Below, piece by piece: positions 20,346-57,939 of a DNA stretch of 64,000 nucleotides. The notes beneath the pieces are model-generated. The model ran no database searches, was not told the DNA's origin, and was given only the letters and a program-made list of their open reading frames with translations. The DNA comes from an uncultured Clostridia bacterium (GTDB lineage: Bacteria > Bacillota > Clostridia > TANB77 > CAG-508), in NCBI GenBank assembly GCA_944386175.1, contig CALXAB010000001.1:47645-111644 (forward strand), written 5' to 3'. Numbering within the stretch: the first letter of the stretch is position 1; each line of letters starts with the position of its first letter. The position numbers and the translations under genes are program-made.

Positions 20346-20452
20346 TATGTAAATTGTTGAATTATTTCCTTTTTTATGCTATATTAACTGTATCGTTTCA
20401 AAATCTTCTTTATAAAATTTCTACTCAAAATTATTTCAAAGGAGGTGTATTT

Positions 20453-29317: not shown

Positions 29318-29329
29318 TCTAACTCCTCC

Positions 29330-29980: not shown

Positions 29981-30082
29981 TATTCTTCAACTCCTAAAAT
30001 ATTTATATTACTTATATATTGTTATTTTTATTGTGGGGAAAATAATACAATTATTTTCCCCTTTGATTAAACACTTTAAATC

Positions 30083-31447: not shown

Positions 31448-31579
31448 AATGTTCTCCTTTCTTTGAATTGAAGGTAAGTATAAAATATTTATACTTAGTA
31501 ATGAATAAATTACATTAATTATTATATATTCATTTTATGTAAAAGTCAAGAAAATCCAGTATATTCAAGACTTTTACGG

Positions 31580-33176: not shown

Positions 33177-33482
33177 AAAAATTCTCCTTTCACATTAAAA
33201 AGCTATATAGTTAAATAATATCTTTCTATGAATATTATCTACCTATATAGCTTTATATTTTTATATAGGCACATCAAAATCGACTTGTGCCTATACATTA
33301 TATTAGACACAAGTTTAAAAATGATGATGCACTTTATTTATATTTTTAGTTATATTCTTCATTTTTATTCCTCTTTTTTCTTATTTTTAATTATAATACA
33401 TTATTTTTTTATATATGTCAAGTACAAAATTCATTTTTTTTAACATGCTATAACCAATTATGATTATAGCATGCTTTAGATT

Positions 33483-33767
33483 TTACTTAGAGAAAGATAT
33501 AATTGCATAATGTCGCTTTGCATCAATTTGATAATAAGAATGCCCCCTAATATTAATTGGCTTTTCTATTGTTTTAATAGAAATTTTCAGCCCATTACCA
33601 TTTGCCCAGCTTGTTAGTTCTCTTTCCATAGCAACATCTACATCCCTTTTTTCTTTTTCAATCTGAACTTTCTTGAAAAATACTAATGCTACTTTTACTT
33701 TGAACTTAATCCATTCCGTATCAAACCGTGACCTTTCTCTTCTTTTTCTACTTTCAAATTTTGACAT
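33483..33767 (-). CDS. Hypothetical basic protein of 94 aa, possibly a gene fragment
   Basis: ORF only. Arg/Lys-rich N-terminus. No recognisable domain. Confidence 0.3.
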   Translation of the reverse strand: MSKFESRKRRERSRFDTEWIKFKVKVALVFFKKVQIEKEKRDVDVAMERELTSWANGNGLKISIKTIEKPINIRGHSYYQIDAKRHYAIISFSK

Positions 33768-33873
33768 ATAGATTTACCTCCTACTATTTATTTTATTTAT
33801 TTTATCACATACACTTATATTTTTCAATTAAAATTTTAGGAAGCCATGCATTATACACAGCTCCCTATGATTT

Positions 33874-35205
33874 TCAGTCCTTATTATTAGTTTCGATAAA
33901 TTGCATAATCCCTTCATAGTCAAAGATACCGAACTCTCGATTGTTTCCAGTTTCCATATCCTTGACTTGGATTTTTTGCTGTTTGATTTCATCTTCCCCA
34001 ATAATAATAACGTAAGGAATGTTCATTTTGTTGGCATAATTCATACTTTTTTTCAGTTTCTGAGTCTTTTTTTCCATTTCTGTTTTGATTCCAACTTCAC
34101 GCATTTTAGTAACAAACTTAAATGTCTGTTCTTCTGTTCCCATTGGAATCACAAACAAATCAACGGTAGAAAACTTTTTGTCAGAATTCTTTAAGACTAA
34201 AATTTCATATATAACATCTAATCCAAAAGACATTCCAACTGCTGGATATTCATTTCCATCATCAATGAATGTTGTAATAATTTTATCGTATCTGCCTCCT
34301 CCTCCTATGCTCATGTTGAAATCTTGTACACCAACTTTTCTGTCTTTCAGGAAAATCTCCCAAACTGTACCAGTATATATATCAATCCCTCTTGCCAAAT
34401 AAGGAGCAAATTTCATGCATTTTTCGGCCTCTGTTCCTGACAGATAATCATATAATGCATCAATTTCTTTTATCCCTTCGGCAATCATTTCATTATCATA
34501 TACTGATAATAATCTTTTTAATGTTACATAATCAGAGTTTAGAACATTTTTCAATGCCTCCACTTTATTGGCATCAATACCAATAGCTGCAAACTCTTCA
34601 AATAATTCTTCCTCTGTGAGTTTGGCAAACTTATCAATCAACATGATTGATTTTCTTAATATTTCTTCCGAAACATCACCAAAAATAGAGAAGATGATAC
34701 CACTCAATAGCTTTCTGTTGTTGAATTCTATTTCAATGTCAAGTCCTAGCTCTTTATATGCTTCGCTTGTCATTGTCATGTATTCTGCTTCTGCTAAAAC
34801 ACTTTTAACTCCAACAACATCAACATCGCATTGGGTAAATTCTCTGTTTCTACCTACCTTAACTGGACCATCTCTAAAAACTTTTCCAATCTCATACCGT
34901 TTAAAGGGTAAGGTAACTCCTTTATTTGAACTAATCAATTTAGAAAAAGTGATTGTCAAATCATACCTTAAACCCAGTTTTCTTTTTCCTTGATCACTCA
35001 ATTTGTACATCTCGTTCAGAATATCTGCACCTTCTGAATATTTAGATGCCAATAAGTCATACATACAAAGAATTGGTGTTTCGACTGGTGAAAATCCGTA
35101 CTTTACAAAGATGCTTTGCAATACACTTTTGATTTTTTCCCGGATAATTTGTTTTTCCGGCAAATAATCATAAGTCCCCTTTAAGTTTTCAAAATTTCTG
35201 CTCAT
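33874..35205 (-). CDS. hisS: Histidyl-tRNA synthetase
   Basis: 443-aa class II HisRS with an anticodon-binding domain (GGGGRYD...FVIPMG). It is a paralogue of the copy at 27998-29317. Confidence 0.85.
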   Translation of the reverse strand: MSRNFENLKGTYDYLPEKQIIREKIKSVLQSIFVKYGFSPVETPILCMYDLLASKYSEGADILNEMYKLSDQGKRKLGLRYDLTITFSKLISSNKGVTLPFKRYEIGKVFRDGPVKVGRNREFTQCDVDVVGVKSVLAEAEYMTMTSEAYKELGLDIEIEFNNRKLLSGIIFSIFGDVSEEILRKSIMLIDKFAKLTEEELFEEFAAIGIDANKVEALKNVLNSDYVTLKRLLSVYDNEMIAEGIKEIDALYDYLSGTEAEKCMKFAPYLARGIDIYTGTVWEIFLKDRKVGVQDFNMSIGGGGRYDKIITTFIDDGNEYPAVGMSFGLDVIYEILVLKNSDKKFSTVDLFVIPMGTEEQTFKFVTKMREVGIKTEMEKKTQKLKKSMNYANKMNIPYVIIIGEDEIKQQKIQVKDMETGNNREFGIFDYEGIMQFIETNNKD

Positions 35206-35450: not shown

Positions 35451-36125
35451 TTAAAATTCCCTTATATCATATCTAAAATATAGTCCATCCATTTTTATTT
35501 TATGAAAATCTTTTATTATATTTTCTTTGACTTTATTAAAATCTTTTCCTACTCTTCTTAATGCAAATACTCTACCTCCTGAAGGATATAGTATATTATT
35601 TTTTGATATTATATGTTCCCCTATAATATCTGTTGTATTTTTTACTTTGTTCATACCTAAAATTGGTTCATCAAAACTACTTCTTTCTACTTCTGGATAT
35701 CCTGCTGAAAATCCATACATTGCTATAGAAAAGCAGTCTTTTTTCCAACAATTATTTATCTTTTCTACATCTTCATAAAAGAAATTTATTATATCTATAA
35801 AAGGTTTATTCAGTAACCCTAATAAAGCTAACCACTCTGGATTACCTGTTCTTGTATTATATTCTAATACATATACTTTTTTATCTTCGGTAACCATTAT
35901 TCCTATATATAAAATATAGTTATATTCCATATTTTCTTTTTTCATACCTCTTATAGTTGGTTCTATTATATCTTTTTTTAATTGTTCTTCTTTTTCTGTG
36001 CTAACTCTTGCATAAGCACATACTCTTAAATTACCTTTTATAACTTCTCCTGTTGTTCTATTAATTCTTCCTTTTTTCTTCTCTATTACTTGTACTTTCA
36101 AATTTAACCTCTCTTTCTCAAGCAT
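35451..36125 (-). pseudogene. purD: Chimeric ORF: the first 48 codons of a large serine recombinase, including the catalytic RVST, fused in frame to the C-terminal ~175 aa of phosphoribosylamine-glycine ligase (PurD)
   Basis: The N-terminus MLEKERLNLKVQVIEKKKGRINRTTGEVIKGNLRVCAYARVSTEKEEQ is identical, apart from one I-to-N substitution, to the start of the intact recombinase at 48681-50573. The remainder (VLEYNTRTGNPE...YGFSAGYP...SGGRVFALRRVG...GLYFRYDIR) aligns with the PurD ATP-grasp C-terminus. Confidence 0.7.
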
Positions 36126-36168
36126 AGAGAATCTTTATGTTTGTATTATATACTAAAATTTTATATTT

Positions 36169-36354
36169 TTAAATACCTATGTGGATTAAATTATATTCTT
36201 TTAAAATATTTTGTTTTAGTTCTAAATATCTTTTCTCTTTAATTAATCCTGCATTATATGTTTTATTTAGAATTGCTATTTTAATGCTACAATTAAAAAT
36301 ATTTTCATTTAGTTTTACATTTTTCGTATTATCAAATTTTACTTCGTACAACAT
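36169..36354 (-). CDS. Small conserved protein of 61 aa encoded immediately upstream of the serine recombinases
   Basis: A strong RBS agaggagga precedes it. It is paralogous to 50617-50802 and, more distantly, to 42882-43058. Confidence 0.5.
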   Translation of the reverse strand: MLYEVKFDNTKNVKLNENIFNCSIKIAILNKTYNAGLIKEKRYLELKQNILKEYNLIHIGI

Positions 36355-36379
36355 AAAAATCCTCCTCTGCTTGAATTAA

Positions 36380-36890
36380 ATTTCAAAAAAGAGCGACAAA
36401 AAAGCCAGCCGGCTAGCTAGACTGACTTCTTTGTCTTACATTTTTTGATAATACAATTATATTATGCTGTTCTATAAAGTTCAATTCCCGTTTTTTTCCC
36501 TTTTTTCTATTTTAATTGATAAAGCGTTGACTTTTTAGTTAGTACACTAAGTAAACTTGTGTAAAAATTTTTTTAATTATTTTTTACTTTATTATTTTTG
36601 AGTTCACTTAGTGTACTTTTTGTTTTGTATTTAAAAACCTTAGTTCACTTAGTGAATAAAAAACTAACTTTCAAGTACACTTGGTGAACTTTTTCTTAAA
36701 AATCACTTATTTTTCGTTCATTTAGTGAACTTTTGCACTCTCAAAGGCATTTTTTAGCTGTTCATTCGGTGAATTTCCGCATCAAATTTGCTTAAAATTT
36801 TTGTTCTTTTGTTAACTCTTGAAGGCTTGTCCTTCAATGTGTATAGGCGATGTGTGCACACTCGCTTTCCTGCCTTTAGTATTGTTTTTT
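36380..36890. repeat. Array of parS-like 15-bp palindromes (GTTCAC-N3-GTGAAC and variants, 6 sites) plus a conserved hairpin
   Basis: Sites TAGTACACTAAGTAAAC, GTTCACTTAGTGTAC, GTTCACTTAGTGAAT, GTACACTTGGTGAAC, GTTCATTTAGTGAAC and GTTCATTCGGTGAAT. The region is about 95% identical to 50940-51350. Confidence 0.8.
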
Positions 36891-36891
36891 A

Positions 36892-38670
36892 TCATATATT
36901 AATTACTTTTTGTTGACTCATATATAATTTATAATAATTTCCTTTTATGCTCATTAATTCTTCATGAGTTCCATATTCTACTATTTCTTTATCTTTAATA
37001 AAAAATATTCTGTCACTATCCACTATTGTAGATAATCTATGAGCAATCGTTATTACAGTTTTATTTTTAACCATTTCTTTTGTTAGATTTTGTAGCATTT
37101 TTTCTGTTTTTACATCAATCTTACTTGTTGCTTCATCGAAGATTAATATTTTAGGGTTATTAATAATTGTTCTTATATAGCATAATACCTGTTTTTCTCC
37201 ATCTGATAGATTTTTTCCATTACTACTTAATTTTGTATTGTATCCATCTTCTAAACTCATTATCCAATTATGTACATTCAATCTTTTACATATTTCTATT
37301 ACTTTATCATCAGTTATATTTTCATTTCCATATTTTAAATTTTTCATAATGCTTGTACTAAATAAGTAATTTTCTTGTTGCATAATAGCTATCTGTTTTC
37401 TAAGTCTATTTAGTTTTATATTTCTAACATCTTCTCCATCAATAAAAATATTTCCTGAATCTATATCATAAAATCTTCCAATTAGATTTGTAATAGTGGT
37501 TTTTCCACTTCCTGTACTACCTACAATAGCTACTTTTTCTTGCGGTTTTACTTTAAAAGATATATTATTTAAAACTTTATTATTTTCTATATAAGAAAAA
37601 CTAACATTTTTAAATTCTATTTCACCTTTTATTTTGATGTCTTTAGCATCTATTTTATCTTTTATATCTATTTTTTCATCCATTGTTTCAAATATTCTCT
37701 CTAAATATGTAATTGAATTAATAAAATCATCTAATGTTTTAAATAAGTCTTCTATAGGTTGCCAAAAGTTAGATGAATAACTTCCCATAGCAACAATAGT
37801 TCCAACTGATGTAGTTGGATATAAAAACATCGCTCCTACAAAATATATTGTTGCAGTTACCCAATGTGACATTGTTTGTACACTACACCATCCAATATTG
37901 CCAAATTTTATTTGTTTGCAACTTGCATCTTTCCAACTTCTACTTAAATCATTAAATATATCTTCATTCTTTTCTTCTCTATTAAATGCTTGGGTTATTT
38001 GCATTCCTTTTAATGTTTCTAATAGATATGCATTAGTATTAGAATTTTTATTATTAATTAGTAATTTATTTTTTCTCTTTATCTTAGCTGTTGAAGCAAA
38101 TATAAAAATAAGTATTACTATTCCAACTAATGCGATTAATGTTAGTTTCACACTTGTTAAAAACATAAATATCAGAATAATAAGCATATTAAATATGTTT
38201 AAAAATGTTGTTACTAATTTATCTGTAATTAGAGTAGAAACATCTTCTGCATATTCTGTTAGTCTAACTAGTATTTTTCCATGAGGTCTTGTGTCGTAAT
38301 AATTAACTGATAAATACTGAATATGTGAAAACAAATCATTTTTTATATCTTCTACAATATTTTGATTTACTTTAGCCAACATTTTTTTATACACTTTAGT
38401 TACAATAATAGACAATAATACTAAAAATAATGCTAATAATATTATGATAAACAATTTTTCATAATCGCTATTAGGAATAACATCATCGATTACATATTGT
38501 AGTATTTTAGTGATAAATAAAGTAGCTATAATAGATATACAATTTAAAATAAATATAATAATCAATTTTGATTTATATTTTTTTATGTATGTTAAACCTC
38601 TTTTATAATTAGAAAGACTGAATGAAGTATTTTTTTCATCTTGGTCATATTTGTTTACACTCATATACAT
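36892..38670 (-). CDS. ABC exporter, fused permease-ATPase subunit (type I exporter half-transporter)
   Basis: Six TM helices followed by an NBD with Walker A GSTGSGKTT, signature LSDGEKQ and Walker B ILIFDEA. Confidence 0.85.
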   Translation of the reverse strand: MYMSVNKYDQDEKNTSFSLSNYKRGLTYIKKYKSKLIIIFILNCISIIATLFITKILQYVIDDVIPNSDYEKLFIIILLALFLVLLSIIVTKVYKKMLAKVNQNIVEDIKNDLFSHIQYLSVNYYDTRPHGKILVRLTEYAEDVSTLITDKLVTTFLNIFNMLIILIFMFLTSVKLTLIALVGIVILIFIFASTAKIKRKNKLLINNKNSNTNAYLLETLKGMQITQAFNREEKNEDIFNDLSRSWKDASCKQIKFGNIGWCSVQTMSHWVTATIYFVGAMFLYPTTSVGTIVAMGSYSSNFWQPIEDLFKTLDDFINSITYLERIFETMDEKIDIKDKIDAKDIKIKGEIEFKNVSFSYIENNKVLNNISFKVKPQEKVAIVGSTGSGKTTITNLIGRFYDIDSGNIFIDGEDVRNIKLNRLRKQIAIMQQENYLFSTSIMKNLKYGNENITDDKVIEICKRLNVHNWIMSLEDGYNTKLSSNGKNLSDGEKQVLCYIRTIINNPKILIFDEATSKIDVKTEKMLQNLTKEMVKNKTVITIAHRLSTIVDSDRIFFIKDKEIVEYGTHEELMSIKGNYYKLYMSQQKVINI

Positions 38671-40379: not shown

Positions 40380-40511
40380 TTATATTTTTTCTCCAATATT
40401 TATTATATTTTTATATTACTTTTCATATTCTATCATAATTTTATTTCTTTCTCAATAAAATTATAAAGTTTCAAAATATATTTATCCTTACATTTGCTTA
40501 ATTATGAAAAA

Positions 40512-40586
40512 ATCCGCAATAGAAATAATGTCAAGAGCGAGTGATAATGAGTTTATTTACTCTTGATATTATTTTTATTGCAGATT
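40512..40586. promoter_or_regulatory. Long palindromic operator (24-bp arms, 22-bp spacer) with inward-facing TTGACA boxes and divergent promoters
   Basis: CTCCAATAGAAATAATGTCAAGAG ... CTCTTGACATTATT. On the + strand, TTGATA-N17-TAAATT. A near-identical copy at 57947-58026 has TTGACA-N17-TAAAAT. Confidence 0.6.
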
Positions 40587-40821
40587 AAATTTACCCTGCA
40601 AATGTATGAGGCAAAAAATAAGTATCAGTACATATCTACCGACACTTAAATTTATAAAGATTCTCTATTACTTATTTCATAAATTCTTTCTAGCAATTGA
40701 AATAACTGATAATTTTACATATCTACAATTAAACACAACCTATATATGTCATGCTTATCATAGACACAATCTCAAATTCCCTAGTATTTCAAACACTTCT
40801 ATCAATTTTCTAAAATTTAAT

Positions 40822-41004
40822 TTATGTGTTTCCACTTACCACATCTGCAACTACTTTAACTTTCACATCTGAATTTTGATGTTTTTCTCTTCCATATCTT
40901 CCTTTTTTCTCGAAAGTTATAATCTCTGAAAACATATCAAATTCAAGTATTACCTGTCCTGTTTTAGTTGTAGCACTGCCACACATTCCACATGTGTTGG
41001 TCAT
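40822..41004 (-). CDS. Questionable small ORF (60 aa, MTNTCGMCGSATTK...) inside the conserved transporter leader
   Basis: A paralogous sequence at about 58370-58560 is conserved in translation, but that copy has no start codon. It could be a leader or regulatory RNA rather than a protein. Confidence 0.2.
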   Translation of the reverse strand: MTNTCGMCGSATTKTGQVILEFDMFSEIITFEKKGRYGREKHQNSDVKVKVVADVVSGNT

Positions 41005-42679
41005 CTCTGGTTGCAGTAAGTTTTAAATGTTGTTTATCTCCTGTTGCAGTAAAATTGTCTTTACAATTTATTTCTGTTCCGTTTTTACAAATAAACCTTA
41101 TTGTATATGGATTTATTGTACCATTTTCTAATGTTTCCCCAATTATTACTTTCTCTATTATACATTCAAAAATATCTTTATCAAAATTTTTCATTATTTC
41201 CATATCTTTAAATAAACCTTTAAACTTGTTTAATCTATGTTTAATACTTTCATTTCTGTTTGTGTCTTTTAGTAGGTTTTGTATTTTCTGTTCTACTTTT
41301 AATAGTTCTATGTTTAGCTCATCATATTTTAAAGTATATTGTTCTTTATTTATTCTGCCTTCTAAGTTTAGTTCTAATAGATTATTAAGTTTCTTGTTTA
41401 TTTTCTCTTTGTCTTTTTCTAGCTTATTTACTACTGTTTCTGTAGTATTTTCTTTTAAGACATTTTCTATTTTTTCTAAAAAATCTTCTACTACTTTTTT
41501 ATTGTTGTTACAGAGTATTCTATATCCTTGTACAAAACAATCTTCTAGTATTTCTTCTGGTATTGCTTTACAGTATGGGCATTCTTCTTTTCCATGTTTT
41601 GCTCTTTTGATACATTGCCATACTGCTTTTTCATATTTTCTTTTTGAGTTCCAGTTTCTTCTTGTAAGTAAGCTACCACAAAATCCACAATATAATTTAC
41701 TACTAAAAGCATATTTCTTACTATAGTTATTATTTCTTCTTCCTGTTTCTCTTGTTCCTACTCGTTTTATTCTTATTTCTTGTACTCTATCAAATAACTC
41801 TTTACTAATAATTGGCTCATGATGTTCTTTTATATAATGCTTTTCTGCTTCTCCTAAATTGCTTAATCTTTTATGTGATATTGGATCTATTGTAAATGTT
41901 TTTCCCATTAGCACATCTCCAATATATTTTTCATTTTTTAGTATTCCTCTTATTGTTGATTCGTTCCAATTATCATTACCTTTTGGGGATTTAATGCCTT
42001 TTGCTTTTAGTTCTTTTGCTATTGTACTTGAACCTATTCCGTCTACATATCTTTCAAATATATATTTTATAACTTCTGCTTGTTCCTCATTTATAGTTAT
42101 CTGTTTTGTTATTAAATCATAGTTATAACCGTAACAACCATTATAGCCAATTAACTCTCCCCTGTCTTTCTTCATTTTTAGTCCAAGCAATACATGTGAA
42201 GATATGTTCTCACTTTCTTGTTGTGCCATAGCACTTAATACTGTTAGTAGCATTTCTCCTGTTCCTGATAGAGTATTTAGATTTTCTTCTTCAAATAAAA
42301 CTGCAATGTTCTTTTCTTTTAGCATTCTTACATATTTTAAAGTATCTAATGTGTTTCTAGCAAATCTTGATATGGATTTTGTTAAAATCATATCAAATTT
42401 TCCAGACATTCCATCTGTTATCATTTTCATAAAGTCTGTTCTTTTAAAATCTAATGTGCCACTTATAGATTCATCTGCATATATTCCTGCAAATTGCCAT
42501 TCAGATTTGCTATTGATTTTTTCATCATAATACTTTAATTGTGATTGGTAACTATTTAATTGTTCTTTATTTCCTGTACTAACTCTACAATATGCACATA
42601 CTCTTAATCTTTCTTTGATTGTTGTACCTGTTACTCTGTTAATTCTTCCGTTTGTTTTCTCTATGACTTGAATTTCCAT
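40964..42679 (-). CDS. Large serine recombinase (resolvase domain plus recombinase and zinc-ribbon domains), 571 aa
   Basis: Catalytic RVCAYCRVSTG...YQSQ motif near the N-terminus, a C4 zinc ribbon (CGFCGS...C..C) and a coiled-coil C-terminal region. It is 60-70% identical to the recombinase at 48681-50573. Confidence 0.85.
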   Translation of the reverse strand: MEIQVIEKTNGRINRVTGTTIKERLRVCAYCRVSTGNKEQLNSYQSQLKYYDEKINSKSEWQFAGIYADESISGTLDFKRTDFMKMITDGMSGKFDMILTKSISRFARNTLDTLKYVRMLKEKNIAVLFEEENLNTLSGTGEMLLTVLSAMAQQESENISSHVLLGLKMKKDRGELIGYNGCYGYNYDLITKQITINEEQAEVIKYIFERYVDGIGSSTIAKELKAKGIKSPKGNDNWNESTIRGILKNEKYIGDVLMGKTFTIDPISHKRLSNLGEAEKHYIKEHHEPIISKELFDRVQEIRIKRVGTRETGRRNNNYSKKYAFSSKLYCGFCGSLLTRRNWNSKRKYEKAVWQCIKRAKHGKEECPYCKAIPEEILEDCFVQGYRILCNNNKKVVEDFLEKIENVLKENTTETVVNKLEKDKEKINKKLNNLLELNLEGRINKEQYTLKYDELNIELLKVEQKIQNLLKDTNRNESIKHRLNKFKGLFKDMEIMKNFDKDIFECIIEKVIIGETLENGTINPYTIRFICKNGTEINCKDNFTATGDKQHLKLTATRDDQHMWNVWQCYN

Positions 42680-43199: not shown

Positions 43200-43625
43200 T
43201 CTATTTTTGATATAATTCTAGTATCTAATTTTATAAGTACACTAAGTAAACTAAAAATTGTATAATTTTAAATTGCAGTTCACTTGGTGTACTAGAAAAA
43301 TATAACAAAAGTTCACTAAGTGTATTTGTAAATTTTGTTTTATTTTCACATTCACTTAGTGAACTAAATTCAAAAATATTATTCAATATCAAGTACACTT
43401 GGTGAACTTTTTCCCAAAATAAGTGAATTTTTTTAATTTTTTAATTCACCATTTTTAATTTTGAACGAAGAATAGCGGGTTTGAGCCAGTTCACCGAGTG
43501 AATTTTTACATCATATTTGCATAAAATTTTTGTTTTTTTATTAACTCTTGAAGGCTTGTCCTTCAATATGTATAGGCATTTTGTTAAGAATGCTATCCTG
43601 CCCTCATTTTCAATGAGGTATTTTG
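43200..43625. repeat. parS-like palindrome array (GTTCACTTGGTGTAC, GTTCACTAAGTGTAT, TTCACTTAGTGAAC, GTACACTTGGTGAAC, AGTTCACCGAGTGAAT)
   Basis: Same family as the 36380-36890 array. It ends with ...TTAACTCTTGAAGGCTTGTCCTTCAATATGTATAGGC. Confidence 0.75.
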
Positions 43626-43788
43626 CTCTTAAAATGTACTTATTCTACTTAATTAAATATACTTATCCTTAAATCCTCTTAATCGAAAAACAATGTGCTT
43701 TTAAAAATAAGTCAAGGTTGTGCGATAGCACATTTATTTAAACCTTGACTTGTTTTTATAAAGCACATTATACTTTTCTAAAAGGATT

Positions 43789-45240
43789 TTAACTATTTAT
43801 AAAAAATTGAATTATTGCAAATATTCCCATATCTGAAATTGTTTTTATTGCATCTACATTAGCAATAACTTTATAAGGGTGATGAATTACTAAATCTAAA
43901 TAGTTTTTCATTCCTTCATTATTAAAACATGTCTCCCATGCTCTTGAAATAGTATCGTCATCAATAAGATTTTGTTTATCTATTGATATTTTATTTATAA
44001 TCTTCTCTAATCTCAAGTCCAAATTATTATTTGCAGATTTCCATTTTTCCCATTTTCCTTTGTTTATTAAAAAATAGATGCTTGATTGTTCTAATAATGA
44101 GCGGATTAAAAAGCAATATGATATTGGGTAATTTTTATATAAATTTCCAAATGATAAATGCTGAATTTCATAGCATAGATTTTTAATCCCTTTAGCTCTA
44201 TCATTACTATATTTTAGTTTGCTACAATTAATATTTTTAAATAAAATACTATTGTCTTTTCTTGTTAATCTGATTTTATTAAATGCTATACTTTCATTTA
44301 TTTTATTTTTTACTATTTCACTTTCATTGGCATTATTATGTTTTTCTTCTCTACCATTAGAAAATATCTTCATTTGTTCATTTTTATTTTCTAAATTTTC
44401 ATTTATTTTATCTTTGCTGTCAAACCTTTCACTAACATTATTTTCTATATTGCCATACAAATATTTTTCTATATTAGCATTATTTTTTATTGTGTTACTT
44501 GTAATCCTACCACTTACAATATCTTGAACAATTCGTAATACTTTCTTGTCTAATTCATTTATTGAAGACAATGGCATTAAAACATTGTTATTAAAAGAAA
44601 TATTCAGATATTCTTTACCAACTTTTGAAGAAACAATCTTTTCAAACTTATTTACTGAAAAATTATTGTCAACTCCATCAAATGCTTTTTTACAAAATCC
44701 TTGTAATTGTGAAAATATATTTTTTACTCCCATTTTATCTTCAAATCTTTTTATTGAAGCTGTATCCCATTTTAAAGCTCCTGTATCAGTTGTATGTACA
44801 TTTCTTATATATCCAGCACAATCTTCAAATGAAGTGGCCACATAACAAGGAATTTGAAAATATTCTTCTCCTTGAATTCCTGCACTCATTGCATATATGC
44901 TTCTTATTTGTGTATATGAAAAGTATTTAAAAGATTCTACCAATTTAGGATTTTTTAAGATTTTCATTGCTGTTAATCTTCTATTACCATCCCATGCCAC
45001 AAATTTTTCTTTTTTCTCATCATAAGTGACTGTAACTATTGATTGTGGATACCAACCATTTGTGTAAATATCACTAATTAACTTATGCATTGCCTTCGCT
45101 TCTTTAGAATTTCTCACCAATTGTTGCATTATAAAAAGTTCATCCGCTATCATAATTTGTGTATGTCTTGGATTCTCTGGATTTACTAATATTTTTTCTA
45201 TGTCTATTAGTTGATGTTCTCTCATATATAATTCCCCCAT
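43789..45240 (-). CDS. ParB/Srx-superfamily (DUF262-like, DGNRR motif) protein with a long C-terminal extension
   Basis: LVNPENPR and VAWDGNRRLTAM are the ParB N-terminal-domain boxes. A possible His-Me/HNH-like DLVIHHP lies near the C-terminus. Confidence 0.55.
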   Translation of the reverse strand: MGELYMREHQLIDIEKILVNPENPRHTQIMIADELFIMQQLVRNSKEAKAMHKLISDIYTNGWYPQSIVTVTYDEKKEKFVAWDGNRRLTAMKILKNPKLVESFKYFSYTQIRSIYAMSAGIQGEEYFQIPCYVATSFEDCAGYIRNVHTTDTGALKWDTASIKRFEDKMGVKNIFSQLQGFCKKAFDGVDNNFSVNKFEKIVSSKVGKEYLNISFNNNVLMPLSSINELDKKVLRIVQDIVSGRITSNTIKNNANIEKYLYGNIENNVSERFDSKDKINENLENKNEQMKIFSNGREEKHNNANESEIVKNKINESIAFNKIRLTRKDNSILFKNINCSKLKYSNDRAKGIKNLCYEIQHLSFGNLYKNYPISYCFLIRSLLEQSSIYFLINKGKWEKWKSANNNLDLRLEKIINKISIDKQNLIDDDTISRAWETCFNNEGMKNYLDLVIHHPYKVIANVDAIKTISDMGIFAIIQFFINS

Positions 45241-45294
45241 TTTTTACCTTATAAAGTCTTTCGTAAATCCCTCATCATTCTTAAGTATATTATT

Positions 45295-46812
45295 CTATTT
45301 TTTTGCAATATATTTTTGATTTTTAGTATTTGGTTTATCTGGTATAGTCATTTGCAATTTTCCACTATCTAATAATGGTCTCATGTATTTTAAATAGAAA
45401 TTTCTTCTGTCTTTTAATCCTAAATATGCCATTATTTCTTTTGTTGTTTTTGGTTCTCTACAAAATTCTAATATTTTATCTTGATGGGTATCTTGGTGGA
45501 TATCTTGGTGGGTTGTTGGTCGGTCTTTTATCTCATTTTCAAATCTATCATGTATAAATATTGTTGTAATAAAATAATCTCTTGTTTCATTTGTTTCAAA
45601 CTCTGGTTCTTTTGAGCCATTATTTTTCAATGCTCTTTTTATTTTTGGAATACCTGTATTTCTACCTTCTGTTAATTTTAATTCTTTTAAAAACTCTCCA
45701 ATTCTACGATTTCTATATTTTCTTGCTATCATATTTTTATCTTCAATTGATTTTTCGCTTATTGAACGGTCTGGTCCTGGATAACTTACAATATGAATTC
45801 TATCTTCCATTATTCTTACTTCTACTGGTTCCCTTACATCATATCCTCTATGATAAACTGCATTTACTAATGCTTCTTCTATTGCTTGATATGGATAATT
45901 AAAAAATCTTACAGCCTCCGCTTGTCCATCTATCTTTAAAATTTTTTCCATAATAACAGTATTTTTAATATATGTTAAAGCACTTTTTATCATAGTATCA
46001 ATAGGTCCTTTAAATATTTGCTCTGTCATATCATCACCTTCTGGACCGTTTCTTAAATCTACTACTTCTATTTGTGAATATGGAAAGAATTTTTGTGGCT
46101 CATCATTAAAAAACATTAACCCTACATTTAAAGGTTTCATATATTCTGGTGTTCCATCTACTATTCTCATACTTTTACATAAATCTATAAAACTCATTGT
46201 TTCGGATTCTTTTAATAGTTCACTCTTTATCTCATATAAGTAATTTTGAATTAGTGGTAGTTTTAAATCTTGAATTTGTGCCTCATGATTCATTCTATCA
46301 TCGAATGGTATTACTCTTGCCATATCATATAATTCTTTTTGCTCTACTTCTGTAGCTTTTACTGTACTGGACATTTTTCTAATATAATATGAATATCCTT
46401 TTGAAAAATCTTTATCTAGTGTTGTTGGACATTTGTATGGTCTATTCTGACCACCAAAACACCATACTACTAGTATATTTTTACCTTTATATTGAGCAAC
46501 ATCTACAATTGGTGTATAGGCTGGCTGTATCATTTTACATTTTGTTAGCAATTCTTTTTGAATTTTATCTATTTCAGATAATTGTAGCCCTTCAAAATCT
46601 TTCTTAGGTCTACCATTTGCTTCTTCAACACCTATTAAAATATATCCTCCACCCCAGTTATCTATATCATTTGCAAAAGCACAAATTGTATGTAATATTG
46701 GTTCTGGATTCCAGTTTCTCTTTAATTCTAATCTTGCATTTTCTACAATGTTTTCATTTAGTATATTTTCTATACTTGTAGGTAATCTCATCTTCTCACC
46801 TTTCTTTTTCAA
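45295..46812 (-). CDS. COG2865-type Schlafen-like (AlbA_2) ATP-binding / HTH protein
   Basis: An N-terminal AlbA_2/Schlafen-like DNA-binding domain (LELKRNWNPEPILHTICAFANDIDNWGGGYILIGVEE), a central HATPase_c_4-like region and a C-terminal HTH. Confidence 0.55.
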   Translation of the reverse strand: MKKKGEKMRLPTSIENILNENIVENARLELKRNWNPEPILHTICAFANDIDNWGGGYILIGVEEANGRPKKDFEGLQLSEIDKIQKELLTKCKMIQPAYTPIVDVAQYKGKNILVVWCFGGQNRPYKCPTTLDKDFSKGYSYYIRKMSSTVKATEVEQKELYDMARVIPFDDRMNHEAQIQDLKLPLIQNYLYEIKSELLKESETMSFIDLCKSMRIVDGTPEYMKPLNVGLMFFNDEPQKFFPYSQIEVVDLRNGPEGDDMTEQIFKGPIDTMIKSALTYIKNTVIMEKILKIDGQAEAVRFFNYPYQAIEEALVNAVYHRGYDVREPVEVRIMEDRIHIVSYPGPDRSISEKSIEDKNMIARKYRNRRIGEFLKELKLTEGRNTGIPKIKRALKNNGSKEPEFETNETRDYFITTIFIHDRFENEIKDRPTTHQDIHQDTHQDKILEFCREPKTTKEIMAYLGLKDRRNFYLKYMRPLLDSGKLQMTIPDKPNTKNQKYIAKK

Positions 46813-46842
46813 ATGTCCGTTTTTTCGGACTTATAAAATTTT

Positions 46843-48680: not shown

Positions 48681-50573
48681 TTATACTACTCCGCACACCA
48701 TGTCAACTTCTATCGTTACTTTAATTTTATGATTTTCTGTTCTTTTAACCTTATTTTTGCCTTTTCTATCAAAACTAATAAAATCTTCAAAAGCAGTAAA
48801 TTGGGCTATTGTATCGAATCTTTCAGACATAGCACCGAGCAACACTCCACATGGCTCACACCCAGTCTGTAGATAGTTTTGGCTTACCTCGTATGATGAC
48901 TGTTGCAAACTACCTTGATTTTTATCTTTTTGACATTTGATTTCGTTTCCAGATTTTAGGATAAATGTTATTACTCTTGGATTTACATCTCCATTTTGTT
49001 CTTTTTCTCCTATTATAACTTTTTCTATCATTAATTCAAAAACATCTTTATCAAATGTTGGCATTATTTCATCATCTTTAAATAGACTTTTAAACTTGTT
49101 TAATCCTTGATTTAAACTAATTGAATCTTCTAACTCTAGTTGTAAATGTTCTTGCTCTTTTTCTATTTTGTTTATCTTGTTTTGTAATTTTGCCTTTTTA
49201 TCTTTTAATGTTTCAAGTGTTATTGTTCCATTCAAGTTTAAATCAATTAACTTGTCTATCTTTTCTTTTAAAGTTTGTTTTTCTTCTTCTAATTTTTTAA
49301 TAGAACTTTCATTACTTTCTTCTTGTATGATTTCTTCCATTTGTTTTAAGAATGTTTTGATTAGTTTTTTGTTATTATTACATAAAAGTTTATAACTTTC
49401 TGTAAATGCTTCTTCTATAATGTTTTCTTTCATTGCTTTACAATATGGGCAATTTTCTTTTCCATGTTTTACAAATTCCATACAATGCCATACCGTAATA
49501 CTATTTTTTGTTCCAGAGTGCCAGTTTCTTCTTGTTAATAAACTTCCACAAAAACCACAATATATTCTACTACTAAAAGGATATTTTCTGCTAAAGTTTC
49601 CTTTTCTTCTTCCAGAGCCTCGTACTCCTCCTCGCTTTTGTAATATTTCTTGTGCTTGATTAAACATTCTTTCTGAAATAATTGGTTCATGATGTTCTTG
49701 TATGTAATACTGATTTTCTTCTCCCATATTGACTACTCTTCTATGTGAGATTGGATCTGTTGTATATGTTTTTCCTTGTAAGACATCTCCTTTGTATTTT
49801 TCGTTTTTCAAAATACCTCTTATAGTTGAGTCATGCCATTGTTTCTTTCCTGTTGGTGTTTTATATTTCATAGCAGTTAGTTCTTTTGCAATTGTTGTGC
49901 AACCTACTCCTTGACAGTATCTTTCAAAGATATATCTTACTATTTCTGCTTCTTGATAATTTACTGATATTTTCTTTGTTTCTTTATCATATACATATCC
50001 TAAACATCCATTATATCCAATTAATTCTCCTCTTTTTTGTTTCATCTGTAATCCTAGTTTTACATGAGAAGATATATTTTCGCTCTCCTGCTGTGCCATT
50101 GCACTCATTACTGTTAGCATTACTTCGCCAGATAATTCTAAAGTATTGATGTTTTCTTCTTCAAAATAAATAGTGATTCCTTTTTCCTTTAATAATCTTA
50201 CATACTTTAAAGTATCTACTGTATTTCTTCCAAATCTTGATATTGATTTTGTAATTATCATGTCAAATTTGTTTTCTGTTGCATCTTGCATCATTCTCAT
50301 AAAGTTATCTCTTTTATAGTCAAGTGTTCCTGTTATCCCTTCATCTGCATAAATCCCTACATAAGTCCAATCACTTCTTGATTTTATTTTTTCTTCATAA
50401 TATTTTAGCTGAGAATTATAACTATTTATTTGTTCTTCTTTTTCTGTACTAACTCTTGCATAGGCACATACTCTTAAATTGCCTTTTATAACTTCTCCTG
50501 TTGTTCTATTAATTCTTCCTTTTTTCTTCTCTATTACTTGTACTTTCAAAATTAACCTCTCTTTCTCAAGCAT
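48681..50573 (-). CDS. Large serine recombinase, 630 aa
   Basis: Catalytic RVCAYARVSTEKEEQ...YNSQ motif, a zinc-ribbon CGFCGS...CPYC and a coiled-coil. It is paralogous to 40964-42679. Confidence 0.85.
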   Translation of the reverse strand: MLEKERLILKVQVIEKKKGRINRTTGEVIKGNLRVCAYARVSTEKEEQINSYNSQLKYYEEKIKSRSDWTYVGIYADEGITGTLDYKRDNFMRMMQDATENKFDMIITKSISRFGRNTVDTLKYVRLLKEKGITIYFEEENINTLELSGEVMLTVMSAMAQQESENISSHVKLGLQMKQKRGELIGYNGCLGYVYDKETKKISVNYQEAEIVRYIFERYCQGVGCTTIAKELTAMKYKTPTGKKQWHDSTIRGILKNEKYKGDVLQGKTYTTDPISHRRVVNMGEENQYYIQEHHEPIISERMFNQAQEILQKRGGVRGSGRRKGNFSRKYPFSSRIYCGFCGSLLTRRNWHSGTKNSITVWHCMEFVKHGKENCPYCKAMKENIIEEAFTESYKLLCNNNKKLIKTFLKQMEEIIQEESNESSIKKLEEEKQTLKEKIDKLIDLNLNGTITLETLKDKKAKLQNKINKIEKEQEHLQLELEDSISLNQGLNKFKSLFKDDEIMPTFDKDVFELMIEKVIIGEKEQNGDVNPRVITFILKSGNEIKCQKDKNQGSLQQSSYEVSQNYLQTGCEPCGVLLGAMSERFDTIAQFTAFEDFISFDRKGKNKVKRTENHKIKVTIEVDMVCGVV

Positions 50574-50616
50574 AGAGAATCTTTATGTTTGTATTATATA
50601 TTAAAATCTTATATTT

Positions 50617-50802
50617 TTAAATACCTATATGAGTTAAATCATATTCTTTTAAAATATTTTGTTTTAGTTCTAAATATCTTTCCTCTTTAATTAGTCCTGC
50701 ATTATATGTTTTATTTAGAATTGCTATTTTAATGCTACAATTAAAAATATTTTCATTTAGTTTTACATTTTTCGTATTATCAAATTTTACTTCGTACAAC
50801 AT
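50617..50802 (-). CDS. Small conserved protein of 61 aa upstream of a serine recombinase
   Basis: About 95% identical to 36169-36354. Start at MLYEVKFDN. The upstream extension in the ORF track is not supported. Confidence 0.5.
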   Translation of the reverse strand: MLYEVKFDNTKNVKLNENIFNCSIKIAILNKTYNAGLIKEERYLELKQNILKEYDLTHIGI

Positions 50803-50939
50803 AAAAATTCTCCCTTGCTTAAATAAAATTTCAAAAAAGAGCAATAGAAAAAGCCAGTCGGCTAGCTTCGACTGACTTCTTTGTCTGACATTTTTTGATA
50901 ATACGATTATATTATGATGTTCTATAAAGTTCAATTCCC

Positions 50940-51350
50940 GTTTTTTTCCCTTTTTTCTATTTTAATTGATAAAGTGTTGATTTTTTAGTTAGTACACTAA
51001 GTGAACTTGTGTAAAAATTTTTTTAATTATTTTTTACTTTATTATTTTTGAGTTCACTCGGTGTACTTAGTTTTTTATTATATCAATTTTTAGTACACTT
51101 AGTGAACTAATTATAAATTATTTCATAAAATTTAGTACACTTGGTGAACTTTTTCTTAAAAATTACTTATCTTTCGTTCATTTAGTGAACTTTCACACTC
51201 TAAAAGAGATTTTTTAGTCATTCATTCGGTGAATTTTTGCATCAAATTTGCTTAAAATTTTTGTTCTTTTATTAACTCTTGAAAGCTTGACCTTCAATGT
51301 GTATATGCGTTGCGTGATGCACGCTATCCTGCCTTTAGTGTTCACTTTAT
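50940..51350. repeat. parS-like palindrome array (the full copy, contiguous with the intact recombinase module)
   Basis: About 95% identical to 36380-36890 over roughly 0.9 kb when the small ORF and the recombinase 5' end are included. Confidence 0.8.
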
Positions 51351-51355
51351 ATCCT

Positions 51356-53209
51356 TTAATTAGTATTAGATTCTGATGTAGTTTTATTTACAACACCCAA
51401 GTTCTTAATACTATCTTGTAAACTTTCATCTGGAATAAAGTTTCTACAATTTTCTAATTTATAAAATTCCCCTAATTTATCTATATCTTTATATAAGAAA
51501 TAAAAATAGTTTTTTAATGCATTTTCTGTTGTTTCTAATCTAGGTCTTAATGAGTATGCTCTTTTCTTCTTATAGAAATAGTTTTCATTAAATAATTTAT
51601 ATAAATTATTTAGTTCATCACTATCTAATGTTATTTTGTGAAATCTCGTTTCTTTGAAAATATAATTTATTTTATCAATGTCTATATTTAAATCATCAAC
51701 ATATTCTCTAATGTTATTCTTGCTTATTATAGTTATTATAGATAATGTAATACTCATAATTATATAATCCATAAATTCTTTTGATAAATTCATTGTCCTA
51801 AATATTTTTATTGATCTAATATCATTGTTTTCAATCATTTTTAAAAACATTATAATGATTGGTTCACCCTTTATAAGATATGGTATAAATATTTCTTCTT
51901 CATGTATATTTTTTCTTTGCAGAAAATCATTAATACTTCTATCTGGAAATTTTTCCCTATGTTCCATTAATCTAATATTATCGTATAATTCTTCTAGTAC
52001 TCTGTACTTTTCATTTTTAGTTAAATTCTTATTTTCAATAACACATGTATATACAGATTCTAAATATCTATTACTAGTAAACATATATATAGAATCATAT
52101 TTATATAATCTACAATAGCTAAAATCTATAACATTTTCATATAGAAAAATTAAATACATATCTAATTTAATAATTCTCCATACAAGATTTATATATTCTT
52201 TTTCTTGACTTTCAGTTTGAATATATTTTATTTTATCTATTAAATTTGCAATATTTTGCATTTTATAATCATCATGAACAGGCACAAATTCATAATAAGC
52301 AAACATTGTATAAAGTTTACAATATATATTTGCAGCCTCTATATGTTTATTATATAAAATCAAATGCGAAACTATTTCATGTATAGCACTAATCAAATCA
52401 CTTCTAAAAATCATTTCTGTATAATATTCTTGAAGAATTTTTTTGTTATTAAATAAAGTTAAATCTATAAGATTCATTATGTTGTGAATATTATAATTAT
52501 AATCATTATCATTTTTTTGTATTAATACTAATGTTTGATTCTTTAAGTCTGTGATATCTTTGCACCCATGGCTATTTAGAGGAATCGCCTTTTTTATATG
52601 CTTCTTTTGTTTCTCTAAATACATACATAGTAAACTGTTTCCAAACCAATTTTTATGAGTGTAAAACCAAATCATTTTAATACACATATAAAATATAACT
52701 ACAAGAGAAAGCAAAAAATTTATTAATATTAGTATTTGACTACTGCCTTTTAGGCATTGTATAATATTTACAAATAATAGGAGAACTAAAATTATAAAAA
52801 TTTTTAGCAATGATAAAAAACTATTGTTAGGGAAAATAACATTAATATGTTTTTTTCCCAATATATAACTTTCAGACAACCCAGATAATAAAGATATTAC
52901 TGAAATTATTATCAATGTATTACTAATTTGAGCTACTAATATATCATTTGAATCAATGTTAAATTCTTTATTCAAGTCTAATATATTTTCAATTTTGTAA
53001 TCATTAATAGCATAAAAAATTACAAACATACTAAATATAACTATACTAAACATAAAAATAATCATTAAAAAATTCATAATTTTTTGTTTAACTACAAAAT
53101 ATTTTTTATTATCATATATTTTATACCATTTTAAAAATTCTTTTATTTTATAATTTTTATTTAAAATAAATCTTCTTATTTTTTTTAATTTACCATTAGA
53201 ATCTTCCAT
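51356..53209 (-). CDS. Hypothetical polytopic membrane protein of 617 aa with a large cytoplasmic C-terminal domain
   Basis: About five predicted TM helices in the first 200 aa. No recognisable domain. Adjacent to an AbiE pair. Confidence 0.4.
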   Translation of the reverse strand: MEDSNGKLKKIRRFILNKNYKIKEFLKWYKIYDNKKYFVVKQKIMNFLMIIFMFSIVIFSMFVIFYAINDYKIENILDLNKEFNIDSNDILVAQISNTLIIISVISLLSGLSESYILGKKHINVIFPNNSFLSLLKIFIILVLLLFVNIIQCLKGSSQILILINFLLSLVVIFYMCIKMIWFYTHKNWFGNSLLCMYLEKQKKHIKKAIPLNSHGCKDITDLKNQTLVLIQKNDNDYNYNIHNIMNLIDLTLFNNKKILQEYYTEMIFRSDLISAIHEIVSHLILYNKHIEAANIYCKLYTMFAYYEFVPVHDDYKMQNIANLIDKIKYIQTESQEKEYINLVWRIIKLDMYLIFLYENVIDFSYCRLYKYDSIYMFTSNRYLESVYTCVIENKNLTKNEKYRVLEELYDNIRLMEHREKFPDRSINDFLQRKNIHEEEIFIPYLIKGEPIIIMFLKMIENNDIRSIKIFRTMNLSKEFMDYIIMSITLSIITIISKNNIREYVDDLNIDIDKINYIFKETRFHKITLDSDELNNLYKLFNENYFYKKKRAYSLRPRLETTENALKNYFYFLYKDIDKLGEFYKLENCRNFIPDESLQDSIKNLGVVNKTTSESNTN

Positions 53210-53265: not shown

Positions 53266-54111
53266 TTATTTTTTTAATTCATTCTTTATTTCTTCTAATA
53301 CTCCCATCGTATCTTCATAATTAATATCTTCTGCATAACTAAATTTAGATTGATAATTCTTCCAATGCTCTTTCAGAACATCACTTTCTTTTATAACTTC
53401 CATTATCTCATTTATATTATTTAATTTATCCATTGAACCTCTATATTCAAATTTCTTCAATATAGCTTGTCCTAATAATTCTTTATTAAAATTTTGTTGT
53501 TGAGTAGTCCATAATATATAAATATCATAAAAATCTCTCGCTCTTGTAGTATCTATATTTCTTGATATAATTGTTTCAAATTTATCAGCTATTACTGTTT
53601 CCATATTATATGCTAATATTTCTATTGAACGATTTTCAAACATTAAATCGAACTTATAATTTACTTCTTTTGGAACAATTACATCTCCTGTTGTTATATC
53701 TAATTTCATTGGTACAACTAACTTATCAAATTTAGCATCTAAAGCTACTCTGTATCCTCCATATTCATCTTCTTGTCTTATTTCTTTTATACTTCTAAAT
53801 TCAAATGCTACTCCATCATCTAAATCTATATTAAAAATTTCATTTAAGATATTTTCAAGATTATCCTTTTCTAAATCAAATCCTTTTATCGTTGCATCCA
53901 TATCAAGAGTATTTCTCATGTCTATTCCAACTATTGCTGTTATTAACATTCCTCCTTTTAATACAAATTTATATTTGTATTTTGATACCGAAATTCTTTC
54001 CAATAGTCTTTCTAGCATATAGTTTTGTAAAATAATGTTTTCATTCACATCTACTTTATCTGACATATTCTTTATCCATGCTTTTAATTGTGCTCTATTT
54101 TTTGCTATCAC
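53266..54111 (-). CDS. AbiEii/DUF1814 nucleotidyltransferase toxin (type IV TA), intact
   Basis: 281 aa. The GG...D.D region (KGGMLITAIVGIDMRNTLDMD). Overlaps the upstream AbiEi gene by 4 nt. Confidence 0.8.
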   Translation of the reverse strand: MIAKNRAQLKAWIKNMSDKVDVNENIILQNYMLERLLERISVSKYKYKFVLKGGMLITAIVGIDMRNTLDMDATIKGFDLEKDNLENILNEIFNIDLDDGVAFEFRSIKEIRQEDEYGGYRVALDAKFDKLVVPMKLDITTGDVIVPKEVNYKFDLMFENRSIEILAYNMETVIADKFETIISRNIDTTRARDFYDIYILWTTQQQNFNKELLGQAILKKFEYRGSMDKLNNINEIMEVIKESDVLKEHWKNYQSKFSYAEDINYEDTMGVLEEIKNELKK

Positions 54112-54701
54112 AATAACACCTCCAAGTATTTTCTTACTTCATCTTCAATATTAAATAATTTTGCATATTTGTGTAGTTTAATAGAGTTTCTATCTTTTCT
54201 TTCAGCATATCTTTTCATCGCATCTGTAAATAAGGCAATTTCTATTTTTTTCTTATTTCTGATAATGTCACATATTGTTCTCTCTAAATCATAAACTTTA
54301 ACTTTGTTTCCATATGGTGTATTCATTTCTATTATTCCTAATTCATATAATTCATCTTTTAAATAGAAAAATTGATAGTTTCTATCTTTTAGTAATTTAG
54401 TATTATAGTAACTAGGTATAGTCAATTGATATTTTATGGGAGTTCTATCACATAAATCATGAAAATACAAAGCTGTCTCATGAGAGAATATCCCTTTTTT
54501 ACAAATTGCTTGTGTGATAAAATAATTATCTTCAAATGTATCTGCTCCAATATATACTCCTCTTGCTACTCTATCTATCAATCCCTTTTCTATCATCCTT
54601 GTTAAAATCTTATTATTTATCCCAATATCTTCTACTTGATATGTTTCAATCACTCCATTATTATTTTTTAATAATTTTTCTACTTTTTCTATATCATCCA
54701 T
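54108..54701 (-). CDS. AbiEi family antitoxin
   Basis: 197 aa with an N-terminal wHTH (RVARGVYI). Overlaps AbiEii. Confidence 0.75.
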   Translation of the reverse strand: MDDIEKVEKLLKNNNGVIETYQVEDIGINNKILTRMIEKGLIDRVARGVYIGADTFEDNYFITQAICKKGIFSHETALYFHDLCDRTPIKYQLTIPSYYNTKLLKDRNYQFFYLKDELYELGIIEMNTPYGNKVKVYDLERTICDIIRNKKKIEIALFTDAMKRYAERKDRNSIKLHKYAKLFNIEDEVRKYLEVLL

Positions 54702-57833: not shown

Positions 57834-57939
57834 ATTCTATTCTCCTAATCTTTACTGTATATAATATATCATAAATTCCTTAATTTTACAATGAAATCGC
57901 CAATATTTTAATATTACATATATCTTTACATTTGCTTAA

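Follow-up and report, generated by a model that had tools for sequence, protein, structure and literature searches.

A predicted two-domain gene in a Clostridial contig

We describe a ParB–HEPN gene on a stretch of 64,000 nt from an uncultured Clostridia bacterium (assembly GCA_944386175.1, contig CALXAB010000001.1, positions 47,645 to 111,644), which we call the window in its full length. The window is low in GC (about 25%) and carries nearly all of its genes on the minus strand. An original prediction, made from the sequence letters, had placed a 483-aa protein at 43789-45240, and the list of open reading frames (ORFs) does contain it, on the minus strand. The closest homologues are 478 aa long and begin with MREHQ, which corresponds to the sixth codon of the window ORF, and inspection for a ribosome binding site found GGGGGA 9 nt upstream of the ATG of M6 at 45225. 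For these two reasons M6 is probably the true start, giving a product of 478 aa. The stop codon is directly followed by a strong terminator hairpin (-37.7 kcal/mol, z = -7.58, with 0 of 200 shuffles as good). It is conserved at about 91% nucleotide identity in L017, a homologue locus that shares the flanking DNA of the window. The features discussed here are collected in Table 1.

An AlphaFold2 model of the window protein, built on 57 homologues, has a mean predicted local distance difference test (pLDDT) score of 75 and consists of two well-predicted domains separated by a disordered linker (residues 265-328), which varies in length and sequence among the aligned homologues. The original prediction had called a ParB/Srx fold and proposed AlphaFold and Foldseek as a check. 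The call is borne out, as the predicted structure has this fold at its N-terminus. A Foldseek alignment to Noc extends over 280 columns, with a high root-mean-square deviation. The middle region is helical, a helix-turn-helix is not established there, and it may be equivalent to Box III and the DNA-binding region of ParB. The C-terminal domain is modelled as all-helical, has no ββα-metal fold, and finds its best structural matches among HEPN domains. We therefore discard the earlier suggestion that IHHP is an HNH-like motif: the HEPN fold rules out an HNH nuclease. At the level of the predicted structure, we consider both the ParB/Srx and the HEPN fold established.

The two motifs that the original prediction had singled out, VNPENPR (residues 19-25) and WDGNRRLTA (83-91), are present and occupy conserved columns among the 57 homologues, as does IHHP (452-455). 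A conservation count over 92-122 full-length members, about 20% identical to the query, found N23, R25, G85-N86-R87-R88, H149 and W158 to be invariant or nearly so, together with E358, R380, E384 and H453 in the C-terminal domain. The window protein retains all family-wide invariant residues, including a Box I-like PxxPR (NPENPR) and a phosphate-binding GxxR loop (DGNRR). Because the invariant positions are kept across members that are only about 20% identical, both domains look catalytically or ligand-competent.

The family assignment comes from PADLOC. The PD-Lambda-5_A profile PDLC03998 matches residues 6-434 of the window protein over positions 1-417 of its 466 (E=8.3e-43), and with 19 further profiles a total of 20 PD-Lambda-5_A profiles match; PD-Lambda-5_A is the only assignment that PADLOC gives. 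Judged by these profiles, the window protein falls within the PD-λ-5 component A family. A homologue from a Vibrio phage carries the PD-Lambda-5_A annotation in its own record. PD-λ-5 itself is a validated two-gene anti-phage system from E. coli ECOR7, recovered by functional selection in E. coli and listed as 'ParB/HEPN, methyltransferase' in Table S1 of its description. It was cloned in a Δmrr host and affected 9 of 10 tested phages, all but one. In HHsearch, component A of the E. coli prototype scored 96.4% for ParBc and 36.6% for DUF262, and component B 99.9% for MethyltransfD12 (Vassallo et al., 2022; PMC9519451). ParB–HEPN fusions had been catalogued in 2013 among defence-linked HEPN architectures (PMC3710099).

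The family is large: an exhaustive profile search returned 2,195 cluster representatives at E<=1e-3, and 817 at E<=1e-10. The Clostridial clade to which the window protein belongs comprises at least 120 clusters at 90% identity, with intact full-length ORFs that are 40-96% identical; its members all derive from uncultured gut Clostridia and are all annotated as hypothetical. In sequence space, the N-terminal domain is placed between ParB_N and DUF262/GmrSD_N. Among 92 family members, 7 match ParB_N weakly and 9 match GmrSD_N weakly (best E=6e-5), and the earlier remark that the motifs would fit both ParB and DUF262 was thus a fair one, given that relatives weakly match both Pfam models. For the window protein itself, the Pfam scan gave no match at E<=0.1, including ParB_N (PF02195), GmrSD_N and DUF1524, and neither did the NCBIfam scan at the same threshold. 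A sequence search of the PDB gave no match with the single protein, and only a spurious match to gp160 with the 57-sequence profile.

Table 1. Window features treated in the text, with positions counted from the first nucleotide of the window.
Feature	Position	Strand	Basis or remark
ParB–HEPN gene, assigned to the PD-λ-5 component A family	43789..45240	-	ORF list, PADLOC, homologue lengths
Predicted ParB/Srx-fold core, residues 7-135	44836..45222	-	
Box I-like VNPENPR	45166-45186	-	within the ParB/Srx core
Box II-like WDGNRRLTA	44968-44994	-	within the ParB/Srx core
Middle region, mostly helical, residues 136-263, with invariant H149 and W158	44452..44835	-	secondary structure
Variable low-complexity disordered linker, residues 265-328	44257..44448	-	pLDDT <50
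Predicted HEPN-fold C-terminal domain, residues 333-483, with E358, R380, E384 and H453	43792..44244	-	
IHHP motif, end of the penultimate helix of the HEPN domain	43876-43887	-	
Terminator of the ParB–HEPN unit, long hairpin and U-run directly after the stop	43685..43778	-	RNA fold
Dispersed intergenic repeat, copy 3, with GTWCAC-N3-GTGWAC palindromes	43235..43644	.	outside the ParB–HEPN unit
Dispersed repeat, four copies	20108-20349, 36674-36915, 43403-43644, 51134-51375		
Promoter-like site	43178-43150		for orf72 and serine recombinase 1
Large serine recombinase genes	40964-42679, 48681-50573		either side of ParB–HEPN
Schlafen AlbA_2, HATPase_c_4 and Fic-like_C (winged helix-turn-helix) gene	45295..46812	-	Pfam; 54 nt from the ParB–HEPN ORF
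Protein of 617 aa	51356-53209		no family match
AbiEii toxin (E=1e-37) and AbiEi antitoxin pair	53266-54701	-	a few kb from ParB–HEPN
Direct repeats	40469-40912, 57907-58455		about 440 nt, 83-89% identical

The missing methylase and the genomic surroundings

In phages, component A mostly comes with a methylase. We fetched 80 loci from IMG/VR, of which 67 encode the fused protein with both N- and C-terminal domains; a D12-class methylase lies within 1.5 kb in 61 of these 67 fused homologues on phage contigs (91%), usually 0-90 bp downstream of component A. Vibrio phage ValB1MD-2 encodes component A as two ORFs and, after them, a DNA adenine methylase with a PD-Lambda-5_B match of E=2e-118. The contexts of two relatives just beyond the Clostridial clade, P0121 (37% identical) and P0122 (33%), were also examined, and in both a MethyltransfD12 gene lies immediately downstream.

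The Clostridial loci differ. No neighbour in the window matches PD-Lambda-5_B in PADLOC, and searches with tblastn and a hidden Markov model made from 68 partner methylases found none, neither in the window nor in 34 Clostridial homologue loci, which represent about 22 distinct contexts and mostly include more than 1.2 kb of DNA at each flank of the gene. A scan of the window for the motif [DNS]PP[YFW] pointed to a single ORF (30083-31447); as a methylase this NPPY-containing candidate is rejected, since Pfam identifies it as a GNAT acetyltransferase. Given that the methylase is present in 61 of 67 phage loci and in both outgroups, and in none of the Clostridial contexts, the gut-Clostridia clade is, on gene content, a derived form of the PD-λ-5 A family that lacks the methylase. 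Variation of the partner extends beyond Clostridia, as two phage relatives matching PD-Lambda-5_A have neighbours other than a methylase. In Yersinia phage HQ103 (L035, 227-2327), a 373-aa A-like protein is encoded with an overlapping 329-aa protein that has no PADLOC match, and in Vibrio phage 10N.286.55.C4_PE001 (L036, 1-3284), a 551-aa A adjoins an HNH-type gene. What is new here is the sizeable methylase-less clade in gut Clostridia; the family itself is known and experimentally validated.

The window gene lies between the two large serine recombinase genes, in a block that also contains the Schlafen AlbA_2/HATPase_c_4/winged helix-turn-helix gene (the AlbA_2 gene in the following), an HD-domain gene and a truncated histidine phosphatase gene. 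The AbiEii/AbiEi pair adds to the defence or toxin-antitoxin cargo of this block. Elsewhere in the clade, one homologue is found at the edge of a prophage beside lysis and tail-fibre genes, another comes last in an integrase/primase island that has inserted into spo0A, and those of L018, L019 and L025 stand directly upstream of large serine recombinases. Homologues also adjoin HEPN/MNT, PemK and DUF4258 toxin genes. The clade gene is cargo on prophages, satellite-like islands and serine-recombinase elements, which is where mobile elements typically carry defence or toxin genes.

Several other observations concern the surroundings. The 617-aa protein adjoins the AbiEii/AbiEi pair. The direct repeats enclose a 17.4-kb block that holds both recombinases, ParB–HEPN, AbiEii/AbiEi, the AlbA_2 ATPase, and the HD and 617-aa proteins; these repeats could be the end points of a composite element. 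Further away, an ORF at 35451-36125 on the minus strand is a chimera: its first 48 aa correspond to the N-terminus of serine recombinase 2, ending shortly after the catalytic RVST motif, and are followed by PurD residues ~257-427. The block at 35977-36915 duplicates 50425-51375 at 91-96% nucleotide identity, and the 5' half of purD is not present in the window. The chimeric ORF has the appearance of a scar that recombination or integration left in purD. Three HisRS-like paralogues (27998-29317, 32178-33176 and 33874-35205, minus strand) are grouped with hisG and hisIE at 27998-35205, an unusual density of HisRS-family genes.

A possible role in defence and the alternatives

For the gene, a PD-λ-5 A family member carried as accessory cargo of an integrative element, we consider a role in abortive-infection-type defence against phages or other mobile elements the most probable one. 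The ParB/Srx domain, which keeps the phosphate-binding GNRR loop, would act as a sensor or switch that depends on nucleotide, on DNA or on both. Arrest of the infected cell would fall to the HEPN domain as the effector, which is most likely an RNase, as HEPN domains typically are. Sensor and effector would thus be united in a single chain, in which the ParB-like switch gates the HEPN RNase. We infer in this way a defence function in the window organism, together with RNase activity and the sensing of nucleotide or DNA.

Several points weigh against this interpretation. Phage protection is known just for the two-gene system of E. coli ECOR7, and our literature searches found no published mechanism for PD-λ-5 or ParB–HEPN. 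The window protein is recognised by neither Pfam nor NCBIfam. In the N-terminal half, Box III of ParB (ENxQR) is not recognisable and the equivalent stretch holds the invariant H149 and W158; CTP binding or hydrolysis can therefore not be claimed. In the C-terminal half, residues 330-483 contain no R-x(4-6)-H, the canonical HEPN motif; R380 belongs to helix 2, H453 to the end of the penultimate helix, 73 residues further on, and RNase activity is therefore not assured. Finally, if component A needs its methylase as a protection against self-targeting, an orphan A might have been repurposed away from defence.

Food for thought is how the clade would manage without a methylase. Since none is linked to it, the protein would have to act by itself, together with a variable neighbour (the AlbA_2/HATPase protein, for instance), or through methylation that other parts of the genome supply. 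In other words, loss of the methylase implies that component A is autonomous or that methylation is provided in trans. We tentatively propose, as a possibility somewhat short of even, that the clade works without a linked methyltransferase, either as a self-contained RNase effector gated by nucleotide or DNA, or by borrowing resident GATC methylation, with AlbA_2 as a potential alternative partner in one sub-lineage. The window contains 30 GATC sites where 100 are expected, an under-representation of about three-fold. The ratio is 0.34 over 254 kb of Clostridial homologue loci (L001-L033) and 0.85 in phage loci with canonical A and B, a comparison that is confounded by taxonomy and offers a lead at most. 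The depletion could reflect a resident GATC-specific restriction-modification system, and hence GATC methylation, in the hosts. GCGC and GGCC are likewise depleted in the window.

One alternative is that ParB–HEPN forms an obligate pair with the protein encoded upstream, in which the AlbA_2 ATPase would take over the part of the methylase as a sensor or a regulator. In the window only 54 nt separate the two genes, which share a strand, and the full AlbA_2 gene is found directly upstream of ParB–HEPN in L007-9 and L017 as well, despite ParB–HEPN proteins that are only about 50% identical. In L001-3/L011, a 3' remnant encoding the last 112 aa of AlbA_2 is still attached to ParB–HEPN. Moreover, the AlbA_2 protein matches the Schlafen-type part of a PADLOC model associated with pAgo (E=1e-22), as well as SIR2-PNTD Aga models. 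Nonetheless, the AlbA_2 gene is absent from the remaining Clostridial contexts, about 18 of 22, including those in which an intact ParB–HEPN gene sits at the end of a prophage or satellite. This makes it a recurrent and not an obligate neighbour, and the remnant in L001-3/L011 shows that ParB–HEPN persists without a functional AlbA_2. The two genes also differ in how they are conserved. AlbA_2 is highly conserved across metagenome-assembled genomes (80-88% at the amino acid level), ParB–HEPN at 49-50%, which fits a conserved flank next to a swappable slot better than a pair of co-evolving partners. When window positions 43396-46818 are aligned to L017 8448-11848, nucleotide identity is 92% in the AlbA_2 gene and about 91% in the 410 nt downstream of ParB–HEPN, whereas the ParB–HEPN proteins between these flanks share 49% identity. 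ParB–HEPN thus behaves as a swapped allele in a fixed slot, and allele swaps between conserved flanks are commonly seen at defence loci. Altogether we regard the pair as unlikely; with AlbA_2 present in about 4 of 22 contexts, we reject an obligate one for lack of co-occurrence.

Another alternative is that the gene is a selfish toxin or addiction module, or a decaying orphan: after loss of the methylase, component A would have become non-functional or would serve the maintenance of the element. The partner has been lost in the whole clade, and the gene travels on mobile elements near toxin-antitoxin genes (PemK, HEPN/MNT, AbiE, DUF4258). ParB-fold domains can be toxins, as exemplified by the ATPase ToxB (bioRxiv 10.64898/2026.05.05.722872). 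Decay is made less likely by the at least 120 clusters of intact, 40-96% identical ORFs that keep all invariant residues. A conserved small antitoxin-like neighbour is not seen in the examined contexts. We consider this explanation quite improbable.

The palindromes near the gene invite a different reading, in which the protein is a ParB- or KorB-like DNA binder that acts on them to regulate the serine recombinase or to partition or mark the element. This was one of the two roles that the original prediction had offered, as cognate binder and regulator of the recombinase. The GTTCAC-N3-GTGAAC palindromes are real: the window holds 15 with at most one mismatch, against 0.02 expected. Their distance from the gene had been given as 170 bp, which needs correction. 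The nearest palindrome (43489-43503) lies 286 bp from the stop codon, on the downstream side, and the edge of the repeat at 43644 is 145 bp from it. The arrangement of gene and downstream array is kept in L017, and in four contexts a large serine recombinase gene follows closely downstream of the gene. The palindromes are part of a dispersed repeat of ~240-400 nt, whose four copies are 60-86% identical and contain 3-6 palindromes at a spacing of about 41 bp. The third copy lies beyond the terminator of ParB–HEPN, just upstream of orf72 and recombinase 1 and of the best promoter-like site; the promoter scan was a simple one that performed at chance level (31 sites, 32.8 expected), and this one strong site is the only one we used. 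The other three copies adjoin a metallophosphoesterase gene, a purD fragment and recombinase 2. Two copies are upstream of a small ORF and a large serine recombinase gene. An Rfam search of the full window came back without a match; the repeat thus corresponds to no known RNA.

The repeat does not follow the protein. In 330 kb of homologue loci there is one such palindrome, in L017, compared with 15 in the window, and no clusters of similar 6-N(0-5)-6 palindromes (at most one mismatch) were found in 37 other loci, namely 34 Clostridial homologue loci and 3 phage records; the window served as a positive control, in which 3 of the 4 arrays were recovered. On these counts, the ParB–HEPN gene is independent of the palindromes. 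Firmicute parS is a 16-bp palindrome without a spacer. We reject the identification of the palindromes as parS, as a 3-bp spacer divides them and their occurrence is not tied to that of the protein. Three of the four window copies stand beside unrelated genes, a strong terminator separates the gene from the array, and no ParA-like gene is adjacent in the window. In addition, the C-terminus is modelled as a HEPN domain in place of the dimerisation domain of ParB and KorB, and the closest relatives are PD-λ-5 systems of phages, which include a methylase. A ParB/parS or KorB/operator relationship is therefore unsupported for the family, given the absence of the palindromes from homologue loci, the shared repeat and the terminator, and we give it very little credence; for the lineage of the window alone it is at most a remote possibility.

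Equally improbable is a type IV restriction enzyme of the GmrSD/BrxU/SspE kind, with a DUF262-type NTPase controlling a C-terminal HNH/DUF1524 DNase on modified DNA: DGNRR does resemble the DGQQR of DUF262, 9 of the 92 family members show the weak GmrSD_N matches given above, and a ParB-superfamily N-domain followed by a nuclease-type C-domain is an analogous architecture, but the window protein matches neither GmrSD_N nor DUF1524, its C-domain is predicted to be all-alpha and closest to HEPN, PADLOC assigns it to PD-Lambda-5_A alone, and for the E. coli prototype HHsearch favoured ParBc over DUF262. The original prediction had raised such a defence gene as its second option; the defence part stands, by virtue of the PD-λ-5 A family, and the restriction part falls, since the effector is a predicted HEPN domain and no DUF1524/HNH nuclease is found.

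The PD-λ-5 reading, which we prefer, has consequences beyond this locus. PD-λ-5 protected most broadly among the systems of the E. coli functional screen and has been described only as a compact "RM + Abi" (restriction-modification plus abortive infection) pair. A clade that keeps every conserved residue of component A and has lost the methylase is a ready-made test of whether ParB–HEPN suffices and of what the methylase contributes. If the tentative proposal for the clade is true, methylation would not be needed to tell self from non-self, unless it is borrowed from resident GATC methylation. A ParB-like protein beside parS-like palindromes is here, in all likelihood, not a partition or regulator pair, which corrects a tempting misreading. 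Finally, more than 100 "hypothetical" proteins of gut Clostridia that have no Pfam or NCBIfam match gain a name and domains.

Comparison with known systems

The ParB fold has been repurposed before, from DNA segregation to conflict. ToxB is an ATPase with a ParB-CTPase fold from contact-dependent inhibition (CDI), in which the nucleotide specificity has been switched (bioRxiv 10.64898/2026.05.05.722872). Set beside the window protein by its description, ToxB differs in being a secreted toxin domain with an immunity protein and in having no HEPN domain. With the CTP-dependent clamps ParB, Noc and KorB, the window protein shares the predicted N-terminal fold, a Box I-like NPxNPR and a Box II-like GxRR. 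The clamps differ from it in their Box III, C-terminal dimerisation domain and ParA partner, where the window protein has no recognisable Box III and is fused to a HEPN domain, and in their cognate palindromic sites, none of which accompanies its family (330 kb, 37 other loci).

GmrSD, BrxU and SspE share with the window protein a ParB-superfamily N-domain with a D/E-G-x-x-R loop, a C-terminal nuclease-type effector in the same chain, and a defence context. In GmrSD and BrxU, the control of a C-terminal nuclease by a DUF262 NTPase parallels the switch and effector that we propose. The difference is in the C-domain, which is HNH/DUF1524 in these enzymes and a predicted HEPN fold in the window protein. 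PD-T4-2 also combines a ParB-superfamily domain with HEPN in an anti-phage system (Table S1 in Vassallo et al., 2022; PMC9519451), but as two proteins instead of a fusion; its N-domain is a clear DUF262 (99.7% in HHsearch) and it belongs to a different family.

The ParB–HEPN fusions catalogued in 2013 (PMC3710099) agree with the window protein in predicted architecture and in being linked to defence and restriction-modification; we compared Saro_3948 by architecture. Most of them are listed as 'active', that is with Rx4-6H, whereas the R and H of the window family are located on different helices. The closest system is PD-λ-5. It has a component B, a Dam-like D12 methyltransferase, which 91% of the phage-borne fused homologues have as well and which is missing from the window and the Clostridial loci. 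The host of the clade is a Firmicute, its proteins are about 20-25% identical to the proteobacterial members, and in some genomes they have an AlbA_2-HATPase neighbour. Component A of PD-λ-5 nonetheless has the same domain order, length class and invariant residues (NPR, GNRR, H149, W158, E358, R380, E384, H453) as the window protein and, like the clade gene, is carried on a mobile element or prophage.

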